Positions 15,875 to 28,538 of a stretch of 28,538 bases of DNA are shown here, in pieces. This DNA is from Candidatus Heimdallarchaeota archaeon (GTDB taxonomy: Archaea; Asgardarchaeota; Wukongarchaeia; Wukongarchaeales; JBHIFL01), in the NCBI GenBank assembly GCA_046761065.1, contig JBHIFL010000052.1:1-28538 (forward strand), written 5' to 3'. Made by a program: the position numbers and the translations under genes. The notes beneath the pieces are model-generated. The model did not search any database and was not told the origin of the DNA. It was given only the letters and a program-made list of their open reading frames with translations. How positions within the stretch are numbered: position 1 is the stretch's first letter; every line of letters starts with the position of its first letter.

Positions 15875-16902
15875 TTATTCAAACGAGCGAAGGTCATTAT
15901 TGGAAATGGAACATATTGGAACATATTGATTCGATACGATGTTTAAGATCTTTTTCAAACGCTTTTTTTTTATGTCCAAGTAATGTCTTCGATTAAATAA
16001 ACACTCTTTGATACATATTGAACAGCCATAGTGTTTAAAAAAACACTGGAAAGCATTTTTCTACGCCAATGTGTGTTTTTTGCGCTGTTTTCATGTATGA
16101 TAGGTGTTTAATATATTGCATTTGAGGGATACGCTTTAATACATTGCTTACATCCGGTACAAAAAGTCTCGACCACAGGCATGTGAGTTTTGCGAAGTCA
16201 TTGGAAGATTGGCAATATTGGTATAAATGGCAGCAAGCCGATGGCGTGGACCAAATTCGGGGATAATAAGCAAACCATGACTTCCATGCCATCCCATTCC
16301 GGCCAGCTGGCCGAACGGAGGATATACTATAAGTCCACCAAGCGGATGACCAGTTTGTGCGGCGAAACCTTGTTGTCTAAGATAATCTGTGAGTTTATTC
16401 GCAGCTATTCTGAGATCGTTATAAATCCAGAGAATTATGATCCGCGTTTGAAGATTAGATATCATAGCTATCTTTTCGCAATCCATTTCTATGGCCAAGA
16501 TGATTATATTATCGAAAAGTACGGCTTTACCGCGAAAGATGTATTCTCTCAGAAGTTTGTATAACCGATACTACCAACACCAAGAGATTTCACATAGCTT
16601 GTAACTTTCGTTAAAAACGATTCATCAACTTCTGTTTTTGGATACTGAGTATTTTGATCCAAGGAAGATAGCGCGAGACGCATATTGAGCCGCATGGGGT
16701 GTATGATCCTCAACAACGAAGGTATTAATCTGAGACTAAAGGGAGGTCCCATGGTATCTGGATTTGGGGGAATGAATATCTCAACACGTTCTGGAGATGA
16801 GGGAATTACCCTTATCACATCATCCCTTTAAGTTAAACTATCTTCTACGCCAAGAGGATATAATTCACTTCTGTTAAGAAGTTTAAAGATAGACCCTTTC
16901 AT
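15875..16902 (-). pseudogene. Multiply disrupted QueG/reductive-dehalogenase-like (cobalamin, 2x[4Fe-4S]) gene
   Basis: Fragments across frames: KSLGVGSIGYT; AIEMD; AGMGWHGSHGLLIIPEFGPRHRLAAIYTN; FCTGCKQCIKAYP; KCFPVFF/KHYGCSICIKEC. Several frameshifts plus internal stops. Confidence 0.8.
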
Positions 16903-16988: not shown

Positions 16989-19088
16989 TTAGGTCACTTT
17001 TAAAGCTTTGTAATATGCTTTTAAGCCCTCAATAACCATGGTAGTTGTAATAAGGCACTTCGAGTCAAGGTAAAACCCAAATTCCGAGCGTGCTCCTGAT
17101 TGGAGGACTATTGTTTTTTCGATTCGCTTGATTGGTACTGAAAGCCATTGTCCATCCTTTTGTTGTTGCGAACGAAGATAGTTGAGAATTCGATCAATGC
17201 GGGAATAGTGTACATGACCTTGAGTAGCAAACCAACAACTCAACCAAAGCCCCAGAGCAAATGGCTCATTCGGAACTGCTTGGGTGTAGAGGTAATGATT
17301 AGTATCCTTTACAACGTTAATTGCCGATTGAACAATGGTGTTTGGCAGTCGAGTGGCTCGATTATCCATCGTTGCAAACCGGATAAATGCATTGAGCGAA
17401 TGGAGAGCCCTACAGGTAGCGAATAAATCATCCTTCCACCAAAATGAGTTCCAGCCACCCTTTCCTCGCTGTTGGGATAAAAGATGATCCACTGTATCAC
17501 AGATTATGTTTGTCTTTATAAGACCTGCTTCCAATTGAGTTAGCAAAACACCAGATGTGATTTCAACTGGTCCGATACCATGTTTGTGATCTAGATCTCC
17601 ATCAGAATAAGCGCCGTATCCACCGTTAGGAAGGCGATAGCGGAGTAAGGTTTCACAAGCATCTTCTGGCAAGGACGTATTCAATCGATGTAGTGCTAAA
17701 AGTGCCAAGGCAGTTGTTTCTGCGTCTGTGGGGAATTTTCTGTTGTATCCCCACCCTTTACCTGGCCGAAATCGTTTTTGGAGCCATTCTATTGAAGATG
17801 TCAGAAGGGGGTGGAGACTCGGTTCCTTTGACAGCATTGCAGTTACAAATGCAGTAACCCACTCATCCGACATCCCTTGCTGAAGAGAAAAATCAATCCA
17901 GTAGCCGTCTGTTTCTTTTGTTGCTAGTATGTAATCTATAGCGCGCGAGATCATTTCTTCGATGCATATTAAATGATTAGGAACTTGATTTCTTGTAATA
18001 ATCGTGTTACGAGCCTTAATCTTCTTGGGGGTGGTTCTTGGTAAATATTCCATTTGCTCCGCGGGATTCGTGATTACTCCTTCAAAGATCGGGCAAAAAT
18101 AAAAGCTAATGGATGGATGTGGTTCCCCAAGTCCGATTGCCATCCAAGTCGGGAATAGTGGAATCTTGTATTCAGAAAATATATTTAATATAGTATATAA
18201 CTGCCAAAGATTCAAGGAGAAGGTCTTCAACAAATAGAGAACCAGATCAAGAAAACCCTTTGGGTGAATCCAATCCCATGCATAACACGGGAAAAAGATT
18301 TTCATTGGTTGAGGTTCTGTGTGTTGGTCAAGACTTAGCTGCATTGCAATTGAATATGGAAATTGATATGCGTCACAATCTCTTTGGAAATGTTCAAAGA
18401 CTTTTCTTGCAGGTGCAAGATTTGGATGATTACCAGCAACCTCAGAAAATTGACTTTTTGAGTTTTTATAGTCAAGCCATCCCAATAACTTGGTTCTGGT
18501 CATTTCACCTGTTGCTGTAAATTCATACTCAAGAGCTTCAAGCTGGAAACTACTCGGTCCATCATCCTGATTCAAGAGCCTATCCACTGCGGAGGCATAA
18601 CTTGGAAATCGATCTTTAAACTCCGCATCAGATAACCAGCTTTTGAAGAAATAAAGTTCTGATATTTTTAACCCAAAACGCCCATACCCAATCCCCCCAT
18701 ACATTGGTGATCCAGTTAGGTCCGGAATTCCGTTTAAGTGTCTGGTACATAATCTCCATAATTGGGGATATTGGTCTGTATTGATACCAGTGATAATTTT
18801 TGCAAACTTCAAGGAATGGGTCCAATTACTCACCATACCTTGGGAATAATCAGCTATATCCACAATATACCGAAAAGAGTGGTTTTTATCACTTTTAATT
18901 CCAATAGAAAGTTCAACCGGAACTCCGTGGAGGGTTAGAGTTGATGGCCAATGAGAATGCTTGAAAAACAAATTAAGGGGGTCTGTTACCACAGATTCAA
19001 TTTCGTTAAACACTTCATCTGCATGTTCACGAATGCCAAGAGATACAATAGAGTCCACAATCGCCTGAGTAAGAATTTTCGAGTGCAT
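16989..19088 (-). CDS. Fusion of ABBA/DMATS-like prenyltransferase (N-terminal) and MstE-like class II terpene cyclase (C-terminal)
   Basis: N-terminal domain: WPSTLTLHGVPVELS...FRYIVD, RTK, PQPMKIFFP, SISFYF. C-terminal domain: GYWIDF...SDEWVTAFV, GWGYN..PTDAETT, QW-type repeats QQRGKGGW and QQQKDGQW. Confidence 0.75.
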   Translation of the reverse strand: MHSKILTQAIVDSIVSLGIREHADEVFNEIESVVTDPLNLFFKHSHWPSTLTLHGVPVELSIGIKSDKNHSFRYIVDIADYSQGMVSNWTHSLKFAKIITGINTDQYPQLWRLCTRHLNGIPDLTGSPMYGGIGYGRFGLKISELYFFKSWLSDAEFKDRFPSYASAVDRLLNQDDGPSSFQLEALEYEFTATGEMTRTKLLGWLDYKNSKSQFSEVAGNHPNLAPARKVFEHFQRDCDAYQFPYSIAMQLSLDQHTEPQPMKIFFPCYAWDWIHPKGFLDLVLYLLKTFSLNLWQLYTILNIFSEYKIPLFPTWMAIGLGEPHPSISFYFCPIFEGVITNPAEQMEYLPRTTPKKIKARNTIITRNQVPNHLICIEEMISRAIDYILATKETDGYWIDFSLQQGMSDEWVTAFVTAMLSKEPSLHPLLTSSIEWLQKRFRPGKGWGYNRKFPTDAETTALALLALHRLNTSLPEDACETLLRYRLPNGGYGAYSDGDLDHKHGIGPVEITSGVLLTQLEAGLIKTNIICDTVDHLLSQQRGKGGWNSFWWKDDLFATCRALHSLNAFIRFATMDNRATRLPNTIVQSAINVVKDTNHYLYTQAVPNEPFALGLWLSCWFATQGHVHYSRIDRILNYLRSQQQKDGQWLSVPIKRIEKTIVLQSGARSEFGFYLDSKCLITTTMVIEGLKAYYKALKVT

Positions 19089-19435
19089 TTGCTTCGCCTA
19101 GATTTCCTATGGCTTTTTTTCCTTCTATTGCTGTGAATTGAAAGGCATTGGGACAAATATGTTTTTACAATTGGATTAGAACCGGCTATTTATTTCACTA
19201 GTTATTTTATTGATATTACTGTCTTTGAATTATATTATCTCATTACTAAGCTATTGCAACAGTGTGTTCTATTGTCTACATGTTTCCATATAATAAAAAG
19301 ATTTGATCCCTCTTTGATGAGTAGGACAAAATTTCTTTTCCGATAGAACGCCTTATCCGTATTTGTATAAGGCTTGATTAAAATAACTCAATTTAACGCA
19401 AGGATTCGGTATTGAGAGACAGGAGATGGGAATGG

Positions 19436-19675
19436 TTAGGGGCTCCCCCACATTGGCTGGGGACCATGAGATCCTTGATGCCGTATATAATCGATGATAG
19501 CTTTTTGTACCGCTTTTTTGTTTGTAATCAATTTTAAATCAAAAAGGTAATCTAACACACCCTTGTATATGGTATCCCAATATTTTTTAGACACTACTTC
19601 AAGTTTATTCTCTTCCTTACTCATGATTTTCTTAAGTTTTATTTTACCAGGGTCTATTTCACTCATTTTTCTCAC
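19436..19675 (-). CDS. Small protein (76-79 aa); candidate precursor peptide for the downstream prenyltransferase-cyclase
   Basis: Clean ORF in AT-rich DNA; charged, helix-like body followed by the tail GSHGPQPMWGSP. The precursor role is inference. Confidence 0.6.
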   Translation of the reverse strand: MRKMSEIDPGKIKLKKIMSKEENKLEVVSKKYWDTIYKGVLDYLFDLKLITNKKAVQKAIIDYIRHQGSHGPQPMWGSP

Positions 19676-19904
19676 TCTCTTTATTTTTTGTTTTCTTAAT
19701 TGCTTTCAATGTTTATTATAACAAATTAAATTCTTGTTAAAAATGTTTTGGGCGTATAAATAATATAATCAATAATTCAATTGGAAACATTCTACTTTAA
19801 GTGATTAGTTAAATTAAAAACCCAAGGATTTTGGTTTCTAACTGTGGAAATACTTTTAATTCCCGTGAGGTAAATGGGAGACGCACAGAAACAAGGTAGG
19901 CGGT

Positions 19905-21794
19905 TCAATCAATAACACTTTCTGCTTGAAAAATTTCCAAGACCATCTGGTTCAATCCGGGTTCACCCACTACTCCAATATCCTCAATGGTTTTGAGTGT
20001 TGCATCAGACTTCATCATAGTTTTCAGAATTTCCCAAATACTTGGTGACGCCTGGACTTGTTCGATGAGCCGTTCTAATTTCTGAAGAGCTAAATATGAT
20101 TGCCCTTTAAAGATATAACAGAATAACAAGGACTCTAGCGCTTTTAGAACCACGGTATACTCTTGGTACGTGATCCGGTCGGTTTCCGCTCCAGCAAACA
20201 CTTCTTTGCCAAAGTTATTGATCGCAGTTAATAAGCCACCAATAAGTTGATCATCCAATTGCTGCCCCAAGGTAAATTTCTTGGAATAAATGCTGATTCC
20301 GCTTTCCGTCAAAATCAAAAGTAACAACGGTTCATCGGGTTGGAGTGGGGGAAGCTCAACGGCTCGTTGCTGCACCATCCGCGTGAGTTGTGATTCAACT
20401 CCAGATAATGCACCAGCGTCGGCTAGGGATGGTTCCCGATCTCGGAGAGCCTCCCACTGGTTTAATTGATCAAGTAACAAATCATGTTCATAGGAGATGC
20501 TCATGGCCAACTTCTGTAACCCTTTTTCTTCTGCGAGGACTTGGGCTTGCGATAATAAGTGACGAGCGTGAGGTATGTCCAGTTCGATGAGAGCCAGCTT
20601 CGCTTGTAGCAAGTAGGTTTCAGCAAGTAAAGAATATGAATATTGTGACTTTGCTAGGTCAAGGAGGCGGTTAGTAATGGTTTTGATTTCGTGTAAAATT
20701 TCAGGAGCTTCCGACGTTTTAAACTCGAAGAACAGTAATTCGCAGAGATTAAGACTCGCCAAGACAGTATAGTCGCGGGATATAATCTCATCTTTTGTGA
20801 TTTGCTGAAAAAGCTCTTGGGCCCTCATTTTATCCCGAGTTCGTGGACTCACCTTGAGAACCATGGCCTGAGTGAAGCGATACGCAAGATCCGTGACCTT
20901 ACTAGCTACATTTCCACGAAGTGTCTTTAGCCGGTGCAAATAGCGTCTTGCGAGCTCCATCTTGCCCTGCTCGAGGGAGATCCAAACCAAAAGACTAAGA
21001 TTAAAAGCGAAGAAAAAACCTCCAAAGAGAGTGATTCCTGCTTCCTCTAGAACCTTCAAACTCTCTAACCCGTATTGGAATGCCGCATCTAAATTACCTG
21101 AATGCAGATATAACCGGCCGATTAAAGTACGATTTAATCCAATTTGTAATTTAATTCCTTGTTCCTGAAAAATAGACAAACTTTTCTGCAAATACTCTAA
21201 GGAGGACTCCCATTCACCTTTCTGCAAATTAATAATCCCGAGATATTGGAAAGCTCGAGCTTCTACAAAAGTACCGGGAATTCTCACATGCTCACAGATC
21301 GACAAGCATTGTTGAAGGGTTTCTAAGGCATGTTCCAGCTCTCCTTTGTTCGTGTAAACTGCACCGAGCCAGGCGAGCGATTGGGCAACCCCGTAATGGG
21401 TTCCCAAATGCTCACGTAGCGTTAGACTTTGCTGTAAATATTCTAAGGCGCGTTCCATTTCTCCTATATTTGCGTAAGTTACCCCGAGACAATAGAGCGA
21501 CTGAGCGATTGCTTGAGGAGTGCCCAGCTGCTCACGTAGTGTCAGACTTTGCTGTAAATATTCTAAGGCGCGTTTATAATCTCCTTGATGCAAATAAGTA
21601 AAACCAATATAATAGAGGGAATTGGCAATCATGTGGGGCCGTTTTAGCTGCTTATGAAGCGTCAGACCTTGTTGTACGCACTCTAAGGCGCGTTCCATTT
21701 CCCCCATATATGAGTAAAGCCCACTTTCGAGCGCTAGTAACATTACCTTTCGTTCTGTGATATCTGAGGCCATAACATTTTGGATGGTATCCAA
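19905..21794 (-). CDS. TPR-repeat protein (40-aa repeats) with C-terminal longin-like domain; main part of a frameshifted gene
   Basis: Repeats of the form AQSLY.LG..Y...GE.ERALEYLQQSLTL. C-terminal LLLILTESGISIYSKKF...DDQLIGGLLTAINNFGKEVF...LLFCYIFKG. Confidence 0.85.
   Translation of the reverse strand: MDTIQNVMASDITERKVMLLALESGLYSYMGEMERALECVQQGLTLHKQLKRPHMIANSLYYIGFTYLHQGDYKRALEYLQQSLTLREQLGTPQAIAQSLYCLGVTYANIGEMERALEYLQQSLTLREHLGTHYGVAQSLAWLGAVYTNKGELEHALETLQQCLSICEHVRIPGTFVEARAFQYLGIINLQKGEWESSLEYLQKSLSIFQEQGIKLQIGLNRTLIGRLYLHSGNLDAAFQYGLESLKVLEEAGITLFGGFFFAFNLSLLVWISLEQGKMELARRYLHRLKTLRGNVASKVTDLAYRFTQAMVLKVSPRTRDKMRAQELFQQITKDEIISRDYTVLASLNLCELLFFEFKTSEAPEILHEIKTITNRLLDLAKSQYSYSLLAETYLLQAKLALIELDIPHARHLLSQAQVLAEEKGLQKLAMSISYEHDLLLDQLNQWEALRDREPSLADAGALSGVESQLTRMVQQRAVELPPLQPDEPLLLLILTESGISIYSKKFTLGQQLDDQLIGGLLTAINNFGKEVFAGAETDRITYQEYTVVLKALESLLFCYIFKGQSYLALQKLERLIEQVQASPSIWEILKTMMKSDATLKTIEDIGVVGEPGLNQMVLEIFQAESVID
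21294..21701 (-). repeat. 120-bp-period tandem repeats encoding TPR units
   Basis: TGCTCACGTAG-GT-AGACTTTGCTGTAAATATTCTAAGGCGCGTT at about 21409 and 21529; more diverged copies near 21290-21340 and 21650-21700. Confidence 0.8.
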
Positions 21795-21820: not shown

Positions 21821-22183
21821 TCAGCTGACCTCAAACATACCTCGCTCCAGCCAAGCTTCAGCCATAACGTTAAGCGCATCTACTTGGATTAATGGCTGCT
21901 CTAGGTTTTGACTTGCCATGATGACTTGATCTGCAATAGCTTGTGCCCTTATCACGTCTTGTTGAGCGAAAATACGACATTTGAGCAACTGTTCTTTCAA
22001 TCGTTTGGTCTCTGTTACATCTTCCTGGGTTCCTAGCCGGTCTAATTGTACTAGAGCTTCACTGAACTTTCCTTGCTGGAATAAGTGTTCTGCTTGCTGG
22101 AGTGGTTTGTTTTGGGTGGTGCGTTTAGAATCGCATTTATCCCCTTGTCGCACCACATTTAACCCCTTGGGGGATATCCCCAT
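21821..22183 (-). pseudogene. N-terminal fragment of the TPR gene, separated by a single-base frameshift
   Basis: TPR-like LQQAEHLFQQGKFSEAL...QVDALNVMAEAWLERG. Adding one base near 21824 joins it in frame to LSFINEGKVVLDTIQ of the downstream ORF. Confidence 0.75.
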
Positions 22184-23777: not shown

Positions 23778-24578
23778 ATGGTGAATGAGGATATTTCGTC
23801 TGATTATTATGACCGCAGAGCTATGCAGGCCTTGCAATTGTGGGTTATGTTTATTATAGTAAGTGTAATCAATAATGGTACTATCTTTTTCGCAATGGAG
23901 GTAGATCTGTGCGATTGAACTTATTCATCTATCAAGTTCCTCATTAGTGGGATAGTTATTTATGCTGGGCTTTTTCTTGTTGCTCCGTTGATCCTGATCA
24001 AAGGCTGGAAAGTAGTACGTCAACCCAACTTCATCCTCCCACTAATTATCGCAACTATCGCAATTACCTTCTGGCATAACCCCCGTGGGATTGCAGGTAT
24101 TTCTGTGGTGGTTTTAGCATATTTACACTGGCGTTACGATTTATCAGATTATTTGGGGATACACTCGAAAAGATGGCATAAGGCAGATATGGCTGCAATT
24201 CTGTTTGTGGGATTGTTGAGTTCAGTGCCAAGATTTCTTGATCCTAGCCCTTACTCATTATCGATTGATAGAGCTTTTGTAGCGGCTATAGATCGCTTAT
24301 TCGCGAACCCTGCATCAACAGTTGAGAATTTTTTCTACTTTGGGTTTCTTGCAGAGAGATTATCTCATAAGACTGGAAGGTGGTGGACTCCATTGATTAT
24401 CGGACTTATGTATACCGCCCACGAGATGAGCAATCCAGAATATTGGTATGAGGGGATGTCGTTTGTTCTTGTGTTTCTAGCGGTTGCAATTTTTACTGTA
24501 ATATATTTATGGCGTCGTAATGCGTTAGTGTTATGGTTAGGTAGTGGACTAGGCAGATTATTCAGCAATCTAATTTGA
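23778..24578 (+). pseudogene. CPBP/Abi (CAAX-protease-like) membrane protein with in-frame TGA at 23916
   Basis: The frame from ATG 23778 (MVNEDISSDYYDRRAMQALQLWVMFIIVSV...DLCD*TYSSIKF...) is continuous with the listed 23988-24578 ORF except for one TGA. Motifs STVENFFYFGFL and YTAHE are present; the last His motif is degenerate. Confidence 0.65.
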
Positions 24579-27291: not shown

Positions 27292-27373
27292 GGAGATCAA
27301 GATTAAACAAGCTAAAATTGCTTGAGTGGATACCTATAGAAAGACCGGCCAGAGAACACGGAGGATTTCCGAA

Positions 27374-28538
27374 TTGGCTGAATCCTATGATCTTGTTGTC
27401 ATTGGCTTGGGTCCAGCTGGATGTTTCACAGTCAAAAGTGCAACCACAGAAGGCTTGTCTGTTTTGGGGATTGATAAACGGGAGAGAGTAGGCTTCCCGG
27501 TAAAGTGTGGAGAATTCTATCCTTCAAGTATTGAAATGCCGTCCTTATTGCCCCAAGTAGCGGATTTCGAGTTGTTAAAGATTCCAGACAAGTTTATAGC
27601 GAATAAAACAGAACGAACAGCTTTGATTACGCCTTCAGGAGCTGTTTATTCTGCTCCATTCGATGGTGTTGTCTTGAACCGGGACAAATGGCTCCAACAT
27701 ATTGTTGCAGAAACAAAACGTTATGGTGCTGAGATTTGGACTGCATGTAAAGCCATTGGCCTGATTGGAGAGCGTATACGAATCTTGAAAGGGAGTACGG
27801 AACTGGAAGTACGAGCGAAAGTCATTGTAGGGGCCGATGGAACTGTGTCACATGTAGCGAAATGGGTAGGATTGCCACGTCTACTAACTCCCGAGAACTT
27901 GTGCCCCGTTAAACAGCATCGAATGCGAGACGTAGATGTAGATCCGAGGGTTGTTGAGATGTACTTAGGGCGAGAATATGCGCCTGGTGCTTATGCATGG
28001 ATTATCCCACGAAGCAAAAATGAAGCCAATGTAGGAATCGGGTTTCGGCGGGATTATGTACGACCAGGAGATACAATGTCGGCCGTCTTAGAGCGGTTTC
28101 TTACGAAGCATCCAGTGGCACGTGAGCGCCTAAAAGATGCTAAAATTGAATCAACTATTACCGCGATTGTGCCGGTAGCTCGGCCTGCAGAACATCCGGG
28201 GGACACAGTACGGGGACAAGTCCTGTTAGTCGGTGATAGTGCTCGTCAGGTGATTCCTTTCGTTGGAGCGGGCATTCCCCCCGCAATCATTGCTGGAACA
28301 ATTGCTGGGCGTATCGTGAAGGAACATATCCATAATGGGCTCCCATTGACACGGTATGAGACTGAATGGAAAAAACAACTGCTTGATGCACTTCAACGGG
28401 GGCACTTGCTAAAATTATTGTGGGACCGCCTTGCAGAAATGAAGGATGAACGAAAACTTGATTGGTTCTTCAACCAATTGTCCGAACAGAATCTTGCTAC
28501 AATTTTGAGAAACAAAATCCCTTTCAAATTGAAAGTTG
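27374..28538 (+). CDS. Geranylgeranyl reductase family (digeranylgeranylglycerophospholipid reductase-like), truncated by the window end
   Basis: Not in the ORF track because there is no stop. Manual translation from TTG 27374 (GGAGGA upstream): YDLVVIGLGPAG, PVKCGE, VIVGADG, APGAYAWIIP, LLVGDSARQVIPFVGAGI; open to the end. Confidence 0.9.
   Translation, partial: MAESYDLVVIGLGPAGCFTVKSATTEGLSVLGIDKRERVGFPVKCGEFYPSSIEMPSLLPQVADFELLKIPDKFIANKTERTALITPSGAVYSAPFDGVVLNRDKWLQHIVAETKRYGAEIWTACKAIGLIGERIRILKGSTELEVRAKVIVGADGTVSHVAKWVGLPRLLTPENLCPVKQHRMRDVDVDPRVVEMYLGREYAPGAYAWIIPRSKNEANVGIGFRRDYVRPGDTMSAVLERFLTKHPVARERLKDAKIESTITAIVPVARPAEHPGDTVRGQVLLVGDSARQVIPFVGAGIPPAIIAGTIAGRIVKEHIHNGLPLTRYETEWKKQLLDALQRGHLLKLLWDRLAEMKDERKLDWFFNQLSEQNLATILRNKIPFKLKV

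Follow-up and report, generated by a model that had tools for sequence, protein, structure and literature searches.

Peptides bearing cyclised terpenes were, to our knowledge, first described in 2024 and from bacteria only, and few ribosomal natural products are known to us from archaea. The described precedent is NctPC, in which an ABBA (alpha-beta-beta-alpha) P domain is joined to an MstE-like C domain; it geranylgeranylates a peptide tryptophan and then cyclises the chain (Hubrich, Kandy, Chepkirui et al., Chem 2024, 10:3224, via the review PMC13290415). Here we analyse a 28,538-nt stretch of DNA from Candidatus Heimdallarchaeota archaeon, a member of the Asgardarchaeota (GenBank assembly GCA_046761065.1, contig JBHIFL010000052.1, positions 1 to 28,538 of the forward strand; hereafter the window). 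Its minus strand carries a gene for a 76-residue peptide (19436-19666) and, downstream of it, a gene for a 699-residue fused prenyltransferase-cyclase (16989-19088). We propose that the peptide is probably the substrate of the adjacent enzyme and is decorated on Trp73. The window enzyme possesses both folds of NctPC in the same order, a likeness drawn from the review's description (PMC13290415). The window system differs in being archaeal, in comprising a peptide and an enzyme only, in having no NHLP or Nif11-type leader, and in its acid motif, DAETT. Because NctPC was described in 2024, the chemistry proposed here is not new in kind (PMC13290415); what is new is a precursor family without Pfam or NCBIfam match, an archaeal host, a minimal two-gene form, and the loss of a radical S-adenosylmethionine (rSAM) enzyme gene paired with the loss of a cysteine motif. 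If the proposal is correct, the locus would specify an Asgard ribosomal peptide-terpene hybrid in its smallest version so far, one peptide and one enzyme, and would offer an easily reconstituted system for the study of leader reading and near-terminal Trp modification by a fused prenyltransferase-cyclase.

A minimal pair of precursor and prenyltransferase, in which a precursor Trp is prenylated, is also found in the Bacillus quorum-sensing pheromone system ComX/ComQ (PMC13290415). ComQ, however, resembles the trans-IDS enzymes (synthases of trans-isoprenyl diphosphates) and not the ABBA enzymes, has no terpene cyclase domain, brings about ring closure on the indole and not along the isoprenoid, and is bacterial. 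The ComX precursor has 55-73 residues with a Trp near the C-terminus, and ComX168 ends in RQWGD, which may be set beside the PQWGNP terminus of P0017, a homologue of the window peptide. No ComQ-type prenyltransferase lies beside the window peptide, whose neighbour has the DMATS/ABBA fold, and not that of an isoprenoid synthase, in Foldseek comparisons. PalQ and ChrPC are likewise trans-IDS-like prenyltransferases of peptide Trp, PalQ requiring a terminal Trp and ChrPC having a fused cyclase domain (PMC13290415); the fold of their P domain differs from that of the window enzyme, and the window Trp has three residues after it. In layout, as a peptide of 55-90 residues with a Trp near the C-terminus, the window precursor resembles ComX and the substrates of PalQ. 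The cyanobactin F-type prenyltransferases PagF, KgpF and LimF share the ABBA barrel and prenylate residues of ribosomal peptides, Trp included (PMC13290415), but they use C5-C10 donors on mostly macrocyclic substrates, have no cyclase domain, and belong with PatE/PatA/PatG-type precursors and proteases, for which no counterpart was seen at the window. For residues ~365-699 of the window enzyme, the best structural and sequence match is MstE, a single-domain class II terpene cyclase from Scytonema (PDB 6SBB-6SBG), with which the acid motif aligns; MstE, in contrast, stands alone and acts on geranylgeranyl-dihydroxybenzoate and not on a peptide.

The decisive evidence for the peptide as substrate came from the peptide-gene context of the enzyme homologues. 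Wherever the upstream context of an enzyme homologue could be read, it holds one or more small peptide genes. At ten of ten distant loci where the context could be read (enzyme identity 39-54%), the order is peptide gene or genes, rSAM/SPASM enzyme, prenyltransferase-cyclase. These are L014 and L015 from Planctomycetota, L005, L006, L007, L008, L009, L091 and L092 from metagenomes, and the contig of P0010. Each holds between one and three peptide genes, with two copies in L005 and three in L091. Their rSAM genes are mutually orthologous (E 1e-171 or better), possess the CxxxCxxC motif and match maturase families of peptides made on the ribosome and modified after translation (RiPPs), namely TIGR04463 (3e-62), Clo7bot, CefB and PapB. 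Additionally, a gene of the geranylgeranyl-reductase family lies 3' of the enzyme gene in L005 (4.6e-40 and 138 bits, under the family cut-off of 158.8 bits), and the P0010 contig has a like-sized gene for a flavin adenine dinucleotide oxidoreductase 3' of its enzyme. Since the neighbours are thus a RiPP-type rSAM enzyme and a geranylgeranyl-reductase-family gene, the enzymes of this clade appear to work on peptides and, plausibly, with isoprenoids. Considered in their own right, loci L005, L007, L008, L009, L014, L015, L091 and L092 apparently represent an uncatalogued RiPP family; their peptides match no Pfam or NCBIfam model.

The window locus resembles these rSAM-linked clusters in having an enzyme homologous over its full length, small peptide genes upstream, a similarly placed leader motif of the form (L/I)[W/Y]x3(L/I)D and an aromatic residue within the peptide's flexible C-terminal stretch. 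The clusters differ in the rSAM/SPASM maturase placed between peptide and enzyme and in their Cys-bearing cores, neither of which is present in the window. Four loci are without an rSAM gene and without the Cys motif: the window, L003 (enzyme 81% identical), L171 (83% over the 139 residues present on its contig) and L004 (68%). There is no rSAM gene in the window locus, and the window genome, which is 91% complete, yielded no close homologue of the rSAM enzymes (best E 3e-7). The paired loss forms a natural series that can be used to assign to each enzyme the residue on which it acts. In the Hodarchaeota contig of L004, the position 277 bp upstream of the enzyme is occupied by an unrelated-looking 84-residue open reading frame (ORF) that ends in AAKMITIWRTSPP (MITIWRTSPP) and thus also has a Trp near its C-terminus. 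A first-pass annotation of the window had proposed, as a check, a search beside the enzyme's homologues for similar small ORFs in which a C-terminal Trp is conserved. Such ORFs were found, homologous to the window peptide in L003 and L171 and different in L004. The reading of the locus in that annotation as a two-gene archaeal pathway gains overall support, at the level of sequence, from the enzyme-homologue context and the conservation of the peptide.

In an alignment of the rSAM-linked peptides (A3, 11 sequences), the leader motif (L/I)WxxR/Q(L/I)DMA is invariant and the core reads [W/Y]..D.NCxC, with the W or Y placed 3-6 residues ahead of the CxC motif. The window peptide has no Cys and so no such core, and the leader motif is the only feature that it shares with them. 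In the window this motif is IYKGVLDYL (residues 33-41; 19544-19570, minus strand), as located from motif positions and a pattern scan, and it takes the general form hydrophobic-[W/Y]-x3-hydrophobic-D-x-x. It begins at residue 33 in the window (IYKGVLD), at residue 35 in P0017 (IWEGVLD) and at residues 31-34 in the full-length rSAM-linked peptides. When the pattern [IL]W.{3}[LI]D is derived from the rSAM-linked peptides only, it turns up again in P0017, against a chance expectation of 0.002 per 76 residues. In widened form, it was present in 12 peptide genes beside full-length enzyme homologues versus only 2 of the remaining 12,769 small ORFs of the loci retrieved. Because it was spotted post hoc, we take the motif as a good lead short of proof; it points to a leader element, common to all these loci, that the enzyme may read.

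We then considered whether the window ORF is a real, selected gene. Shuffling of the 816-nt intergenic stretch (32% GC) gave an ORF of at least 76 residues in 10.7% of cases, and ORF length alone is therefore not beyond chance. What lifts the ORF above chance is its conservation, seen in the open frame, the in-frame indels and the synonymous pattern of the tail. Searching with the peptide was of limited yield: a word-indexed homologue search returned the query only, and 40 genomes of relatives gave nothing. An exhaustive profile search, however, returned one further homologue, P0017 on L171 (80 residues, E 2e-19), and a third family member, the L003 peptide (87 residues), came from the gene neighbourhood of the homologue closest to the enzyme. 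The frame is thus open in three genomes, at 76 residues in the window, 87 in L003 and 80 in L171. In a three-way DNA alignment, each of the three indels within the ORF has a length divisible by 3 (3, 6 and 36/30 nt), whereas those of the flanks are mostly of 1, 2 or 5 nt. The terminal sequence GPQPxWGxP-stop is invariant in all three homologues (GPQPMWGNP in L003, GPQPQWGNP in L171), and synonymous differences between genomes are seen in its G, P, Q and P codons. Over the last 20 codons, comparison with L003 gave 7 synonymous and 4 nonsynonymous differences and an omega of 0.08; comparison with L171 gave an omega of 0.13 (both by Nei-Gojobori). We conclude that the ORF is a conserved gene under purifying selection in its tail. 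Two leader blocks are also conserved in the three-sequence alignment (A6), VSKxYWDxIxxGVxDYL and AIxDYIRH. A search of the whole window genome revealed no further Trp-tail peptides or peptides of the rSAM-linked type, and no paralogues of the enzyme.

The first-pass annotation had described an ORF at 19436-19675 on the same strand as the enzyme gene and about 350 bp upstream of it. The ORF, its orientation and the gap, 347 bp, all stood, while the start did not: an in-frame GTG at 19675 adds 3 residues to give 79, but the true start is probably the ATG at 19666, which is conserved in both relatives (L003 and L171) and begins the public gene call P0001 (76 residues). The stop codon occupies 19436-19438. 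A Lys/Glu-rich, helix-like leader of about 65 residues had likewise been described, and this agrees with the composition of residues 1-64 (19475-19666, minus strand), which include 13 K and 4 E (K+E 27%, KRED 36%, G/P/S 9%). AlphaFold2 (AF2), run on the three-sequence alignment, predicted helices at residues 6-15, 27-43 and 50-63. The abrupt switch to Gly/Pro/Ser noted for the last 12 residues was also confirmed. This core-like tail, GSHGPQPMWGSP (residues 65-76; 19439-19474, minus strand), is set apart by A6, by codon comparison and by the AF2 model; it is 67% G/P/S with no charged residue, and residues 64-76 were modelled as a non-helical coil at low confidence (mean predicted local distance difference test score, pLDDT, 67). 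Of the two acceptors originally suggested, Trp and His, the first has held up: Trp73 (codon TGG, 19448-19450, minus strand) lies three residues from the C-terminus and is invariant in A6. His67 varies H/D/K and therefore provides no conserved acceptor, which leaves Trp73 as the candidate. The helical leader, flexible tail and invariant Trp73 fit the leader-core layout of a precursor, as judged from the alignment and the predicted structure. A possible match of the ORF to an unrelated family was also looked for. Pfam and NCBIfam scans at E up to 1 assigned the peptide to no family, returning noise far below cut-off only, and it matched none of the NHLP, Nif11 or proteusin-type leader models in these databases.

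The adjacent enzyme, the presumed maturase, was characterised through Pfam and NCBIfam, profile comparison with the PDB, AF2, Foldseek and a family alignment (A1). Its P domain (residues ~1-335) is built of five alpha-beta-beta-alpha repeats, in which G55-P57-E59, R73 and K200 are invariant, and is followed by a linker (337-363) and a C domain (~365-699). The AF2 model (pLDDT 76; predicted template-modelling score 0.78) shows ten strands in the P domain, arranged as five beta-hairpin pairs with flanking helices, and Foldseek aligned this domain with CymD, 5- and 6-DMATS, TleC and PriB (E 1e-7 to 1e-6, template-modelling score 0.6-0.7). At the level of sequence the resemblance is weak, Pfam Trp_DMAT reaching E 0.0019 and staying under the cut-off. 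A phmmer search of the PDB with the N-terminal domain alone gave spurious lectin matches only, which were discarded; with nothing genuine from this search, the prenyltransferase assignment rests on fold. For the C domain, the SQHop_cyclase Pfam match is above cut-off, profile comparison with the PDB returned MstE (E 1e-21) and the monodomain cyclase 8paj (E 2e-27), and Foldseek returned MstE (E 1.5e-10). Judged from the modelled folds and these matches, the enzyme is a DMATS-fold (ABBA) prenyltransferase fused to an MstE-type class II cyclase, in agreement with its earlier description as a DMATS-type prenyltransferase-cyclase. The protein collection contains 10 full-length homologues, and more are found in Planctomycetota, one Desulfobacterales metagenome-assembled genome and metagenomes; a full-length query against 200 genomes of the same phylum found none.

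From these elements we propose the following pathway. The gene at 19666-19436 would be translated into a ribosomal precursor made up of a three-helix, Lys-rich leader containing the recognition motif IYKGVLDYL and a core consisting of the unstructured C-terminal tail. The 699-residue enzyme would bind the leader, and its DMATS-fold P domain would move an isoprenyl chain onto the indole of Trp73; the role of Trp73 as acceptor is inferred by likeness to NctPC, ComQ and PalQ (PMC13290415). The substrate, the site, the length of the chain and any cleavage of the leader are each inferred, and the donor would most likely be the C20 geranylgeranyl diphosphate. Next, the distal double bond would be protonated by the MstE-like C domain, through D455/E457 of DAETT, and the chain folded into rings by the same domain, giving a peptide decorated with a terpene, or else a lipidated small protein. 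Archaea make geranylgeranyl in bulk for their lipids, and donor supply is plausible given the two polyprenyl synthases of the window genome, the only ones there, both encoded on other contigs.

Conceivably, though this is improbable in our estimation, the product stays whole, as a small protein that a cyclised C20 terpene on Trp73 anchors to the membrane. In all three homologues the Trp has exactly three residues after it (WGSP or WGNP), and such a 'W-x-x-X box' may be a functional analogue of eukaryotic CaaX prenylation; if so, the locus would represent an Asgard protein-lipidation system assembled from secondary-metabolism parts. A 196-residue ORF at 23988-24578 (plus strand), 4.3 kb from the peptide gene, gave a borderline Pfam match to the Rce1-like type II CAAX prenyl endopeptidases (CPBP; E 1.6e-4 and 22.4 bits, exactly at the cut-off) and no NCBIfam match. 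It was considered as a processor of the tail and rejected, the match being at the cut-off only and the ORF sharing no homology with the L003 gene that occupies its place.

Several observations weigh against the peptide being a substrate modified on Trp73. The three co-occurrences of peptide and enzyme come close to a single observation, because L003, L171 and the window are close relatives (non-coding identity about 78-90%; synonymous sites of the enzyme about 76% identical) with shared synteny, the peptide gene lying between the TPR (tetratricopeptide repeat) gene and the enzyme gene in each. The L004 peptide has no relatives, a singleton with a vague resemblance only, and its comparison with the rSAM-linked profile (hhalign E 0.016 over 8 columns) is too short to rely on; for the window peptide family, hhalign against the rSAM-linked peptides gave a non-significant E of 0.23-0.33. 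Outside the conserved blocks, the rest of the ORF is almost neutral (omega 0.74-1.1). A T5 run and conserved blocks in the spacer make separate transcription of the two genes possible, and no protease or exporter is linked to the pair in the conserved synteny. The acid motif D455-A-E457-T-T aligns with the DADTT of MstE and has DAETT in its place, although D455 is invariant in the family and position 457 is D or E, with Glu also in P0009 and P0011 (A1). Some of these points would suit a real but small helical Lys-rich protein, whether regulatory, nucleic-acid-binding or structural, that is unrelated to the enzyme and owes its position to kinship, the enzyme acting instead on a small aromatic metabolite in the manner of MstE pathways. 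Synteny does extend past the pair, to the TPR gene, an iron-containing alcohol dehydrogenase gene and complex I genes; the 347-bp gap and the lack of significant homology to the rSAM-linked peptides are compatible with such a protein; and the C domain has monodomain relatives, MstE among them, that work on meroterpenoids. Yet selection is strongest on the unstructured Gly/Pro tail with its invariant Trp and not on the helices, L004 has swapped in another small ORF that is again Trp-tailed, all more distant enzyme homologues sit in clusters of peptide and rSAM maturase, and the leader motif is common to both peptide groups. We consider an unrelated protein unlikely.

The peptide might instead be the substrate but carry its acceptor in the helical region, at Trp30 or Tyr34, with the tail serving as a signal for cleavage, export or recognition. 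In A6 the residue Trp30 does not vary; position 34, a W in P0017, lines up with W33, which is invariant among the rSAM-linked peptides; and the L004 tail, KMITIWRT, resembles the rSAM-linked stretch MxTLWxA in the 8-column alignment mentioned above. Position 34 is nevertheless Tyr, not Trp, in the window and L003, both residues fall within a predicted helix that suits the pocket of a prenyltransferase barrel less than a flexible tail would, and the published Trp-prenylated peptides (ComX and the PalQ substrates) hold their acceptor in a short C-terminal core (PMC13290415), so that an acceptor at either position seems decidedly unlikely. A non-substrate partner of the enzyme, be it a regulator, chaperone, scaffold or self-protection factor, would account for conserved adjacency alone and for a neighbourhood with no cleavage motif, protease or exporter. 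Such a role has no precedent in this enzyme family, and a leader with a flexible Trp tail is a substrate-like layout; relatives, moreover, carry multiple and variable peptide copies (L005, L091), as is typical of substrates. We hold this role to be very improbable. As to the ORF being untranslated, a chance frame in a conserved regulatory or non-coding RNA region, the shuffles of this AT-rich spacer show that its length is attainable by chance, and the flanking non-coding DNA is conserved as well as the ORF or better. A frame that stays open in three genomes at 22-24% nucleotide divergence, through three indels that all keep the frame, and a tail in which synonymous changes outnumber nonsynonymous ones argue otherwise, as does the lack of any Rfam match or supported RNA fold, and we judge this explanation extremely unlikely. 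Modification of the peptide by its neighbour at Trp73 remains the reading that we favour.

The 347-bp spacer between the peptide and enzyme genes (19089-19435, minus strand) was compared in the three-way DNA alignment. It contains invariant blocks, for example directly past the stop codon and around AATCAAGCCT..CGGATAAGGCGTTCTATCGGAAA, together with a window-specific, AT-rich insertion of 42 nt (19197-19238). The spacer matched no Rfam family, and its consensus fold (-10.7 kcal/mol, 1 compensatory pair) gave no convincing conserved RNA structure. On the 5' side of the peptide gene, a non-coding block at 19711-19857 (minus strand) is ~93% identical across the three genomes, versus 78-80% for the other flanks and ~76% for the synonymous sites of the enzyme; from this conservation it is probably a promoter or regulatory region.

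Beyond the close homologues of the enzyme, loci L018-L064 (Chitinophaga, Pedobacter, Nostoc, Tolypothrix, Rivularia and others) encode proteins of 680-750 residues whose C-terminal half matches the cyclase domain at 24-29% identity, and Acidobacteria possess mostly monodomain cyclase versions of ~320 residues. Proteins of the fused prenyltransferase-cyclase type thus seem widespread. An initial look at the locus of one distant fused enzyme, L047 of Tolypothrix, revealed no obvious precursor.

Two of the genes around the pair are interrupted. Just 3' of the enzyme, the gene at 16038-16902 (minus strand) is broken into four pieces in three reading frames with 66-80% identity to its L003 counterpart, an intact 289-residue 4Fe-4S (Fer4) protein; what is seen in the window is either a pseudogene or the product of assembly frameshifts. 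The TPR protein 5' of the peptide gene is split between ORFs 19905-21794 and 21821-22183 (minus strand, different frames), which match the single 769-residue TPR gene of L003 at 86% and 78% identity, and this is a second frameshift in the neighbourhood of the peptide gene. Farther off, 7.7 kb from the peptide gene, an ORF at 27326-28537 (plus strand) that runs off the window belongs to the geranylgeranyl reductase family (TIGR02032, 193 bits, above the cut-off). The product of this ORF is probably an ordinary archaeal lipid reductase, but in relatives of the enzyme a gene of the reductase family lies directly downstream.

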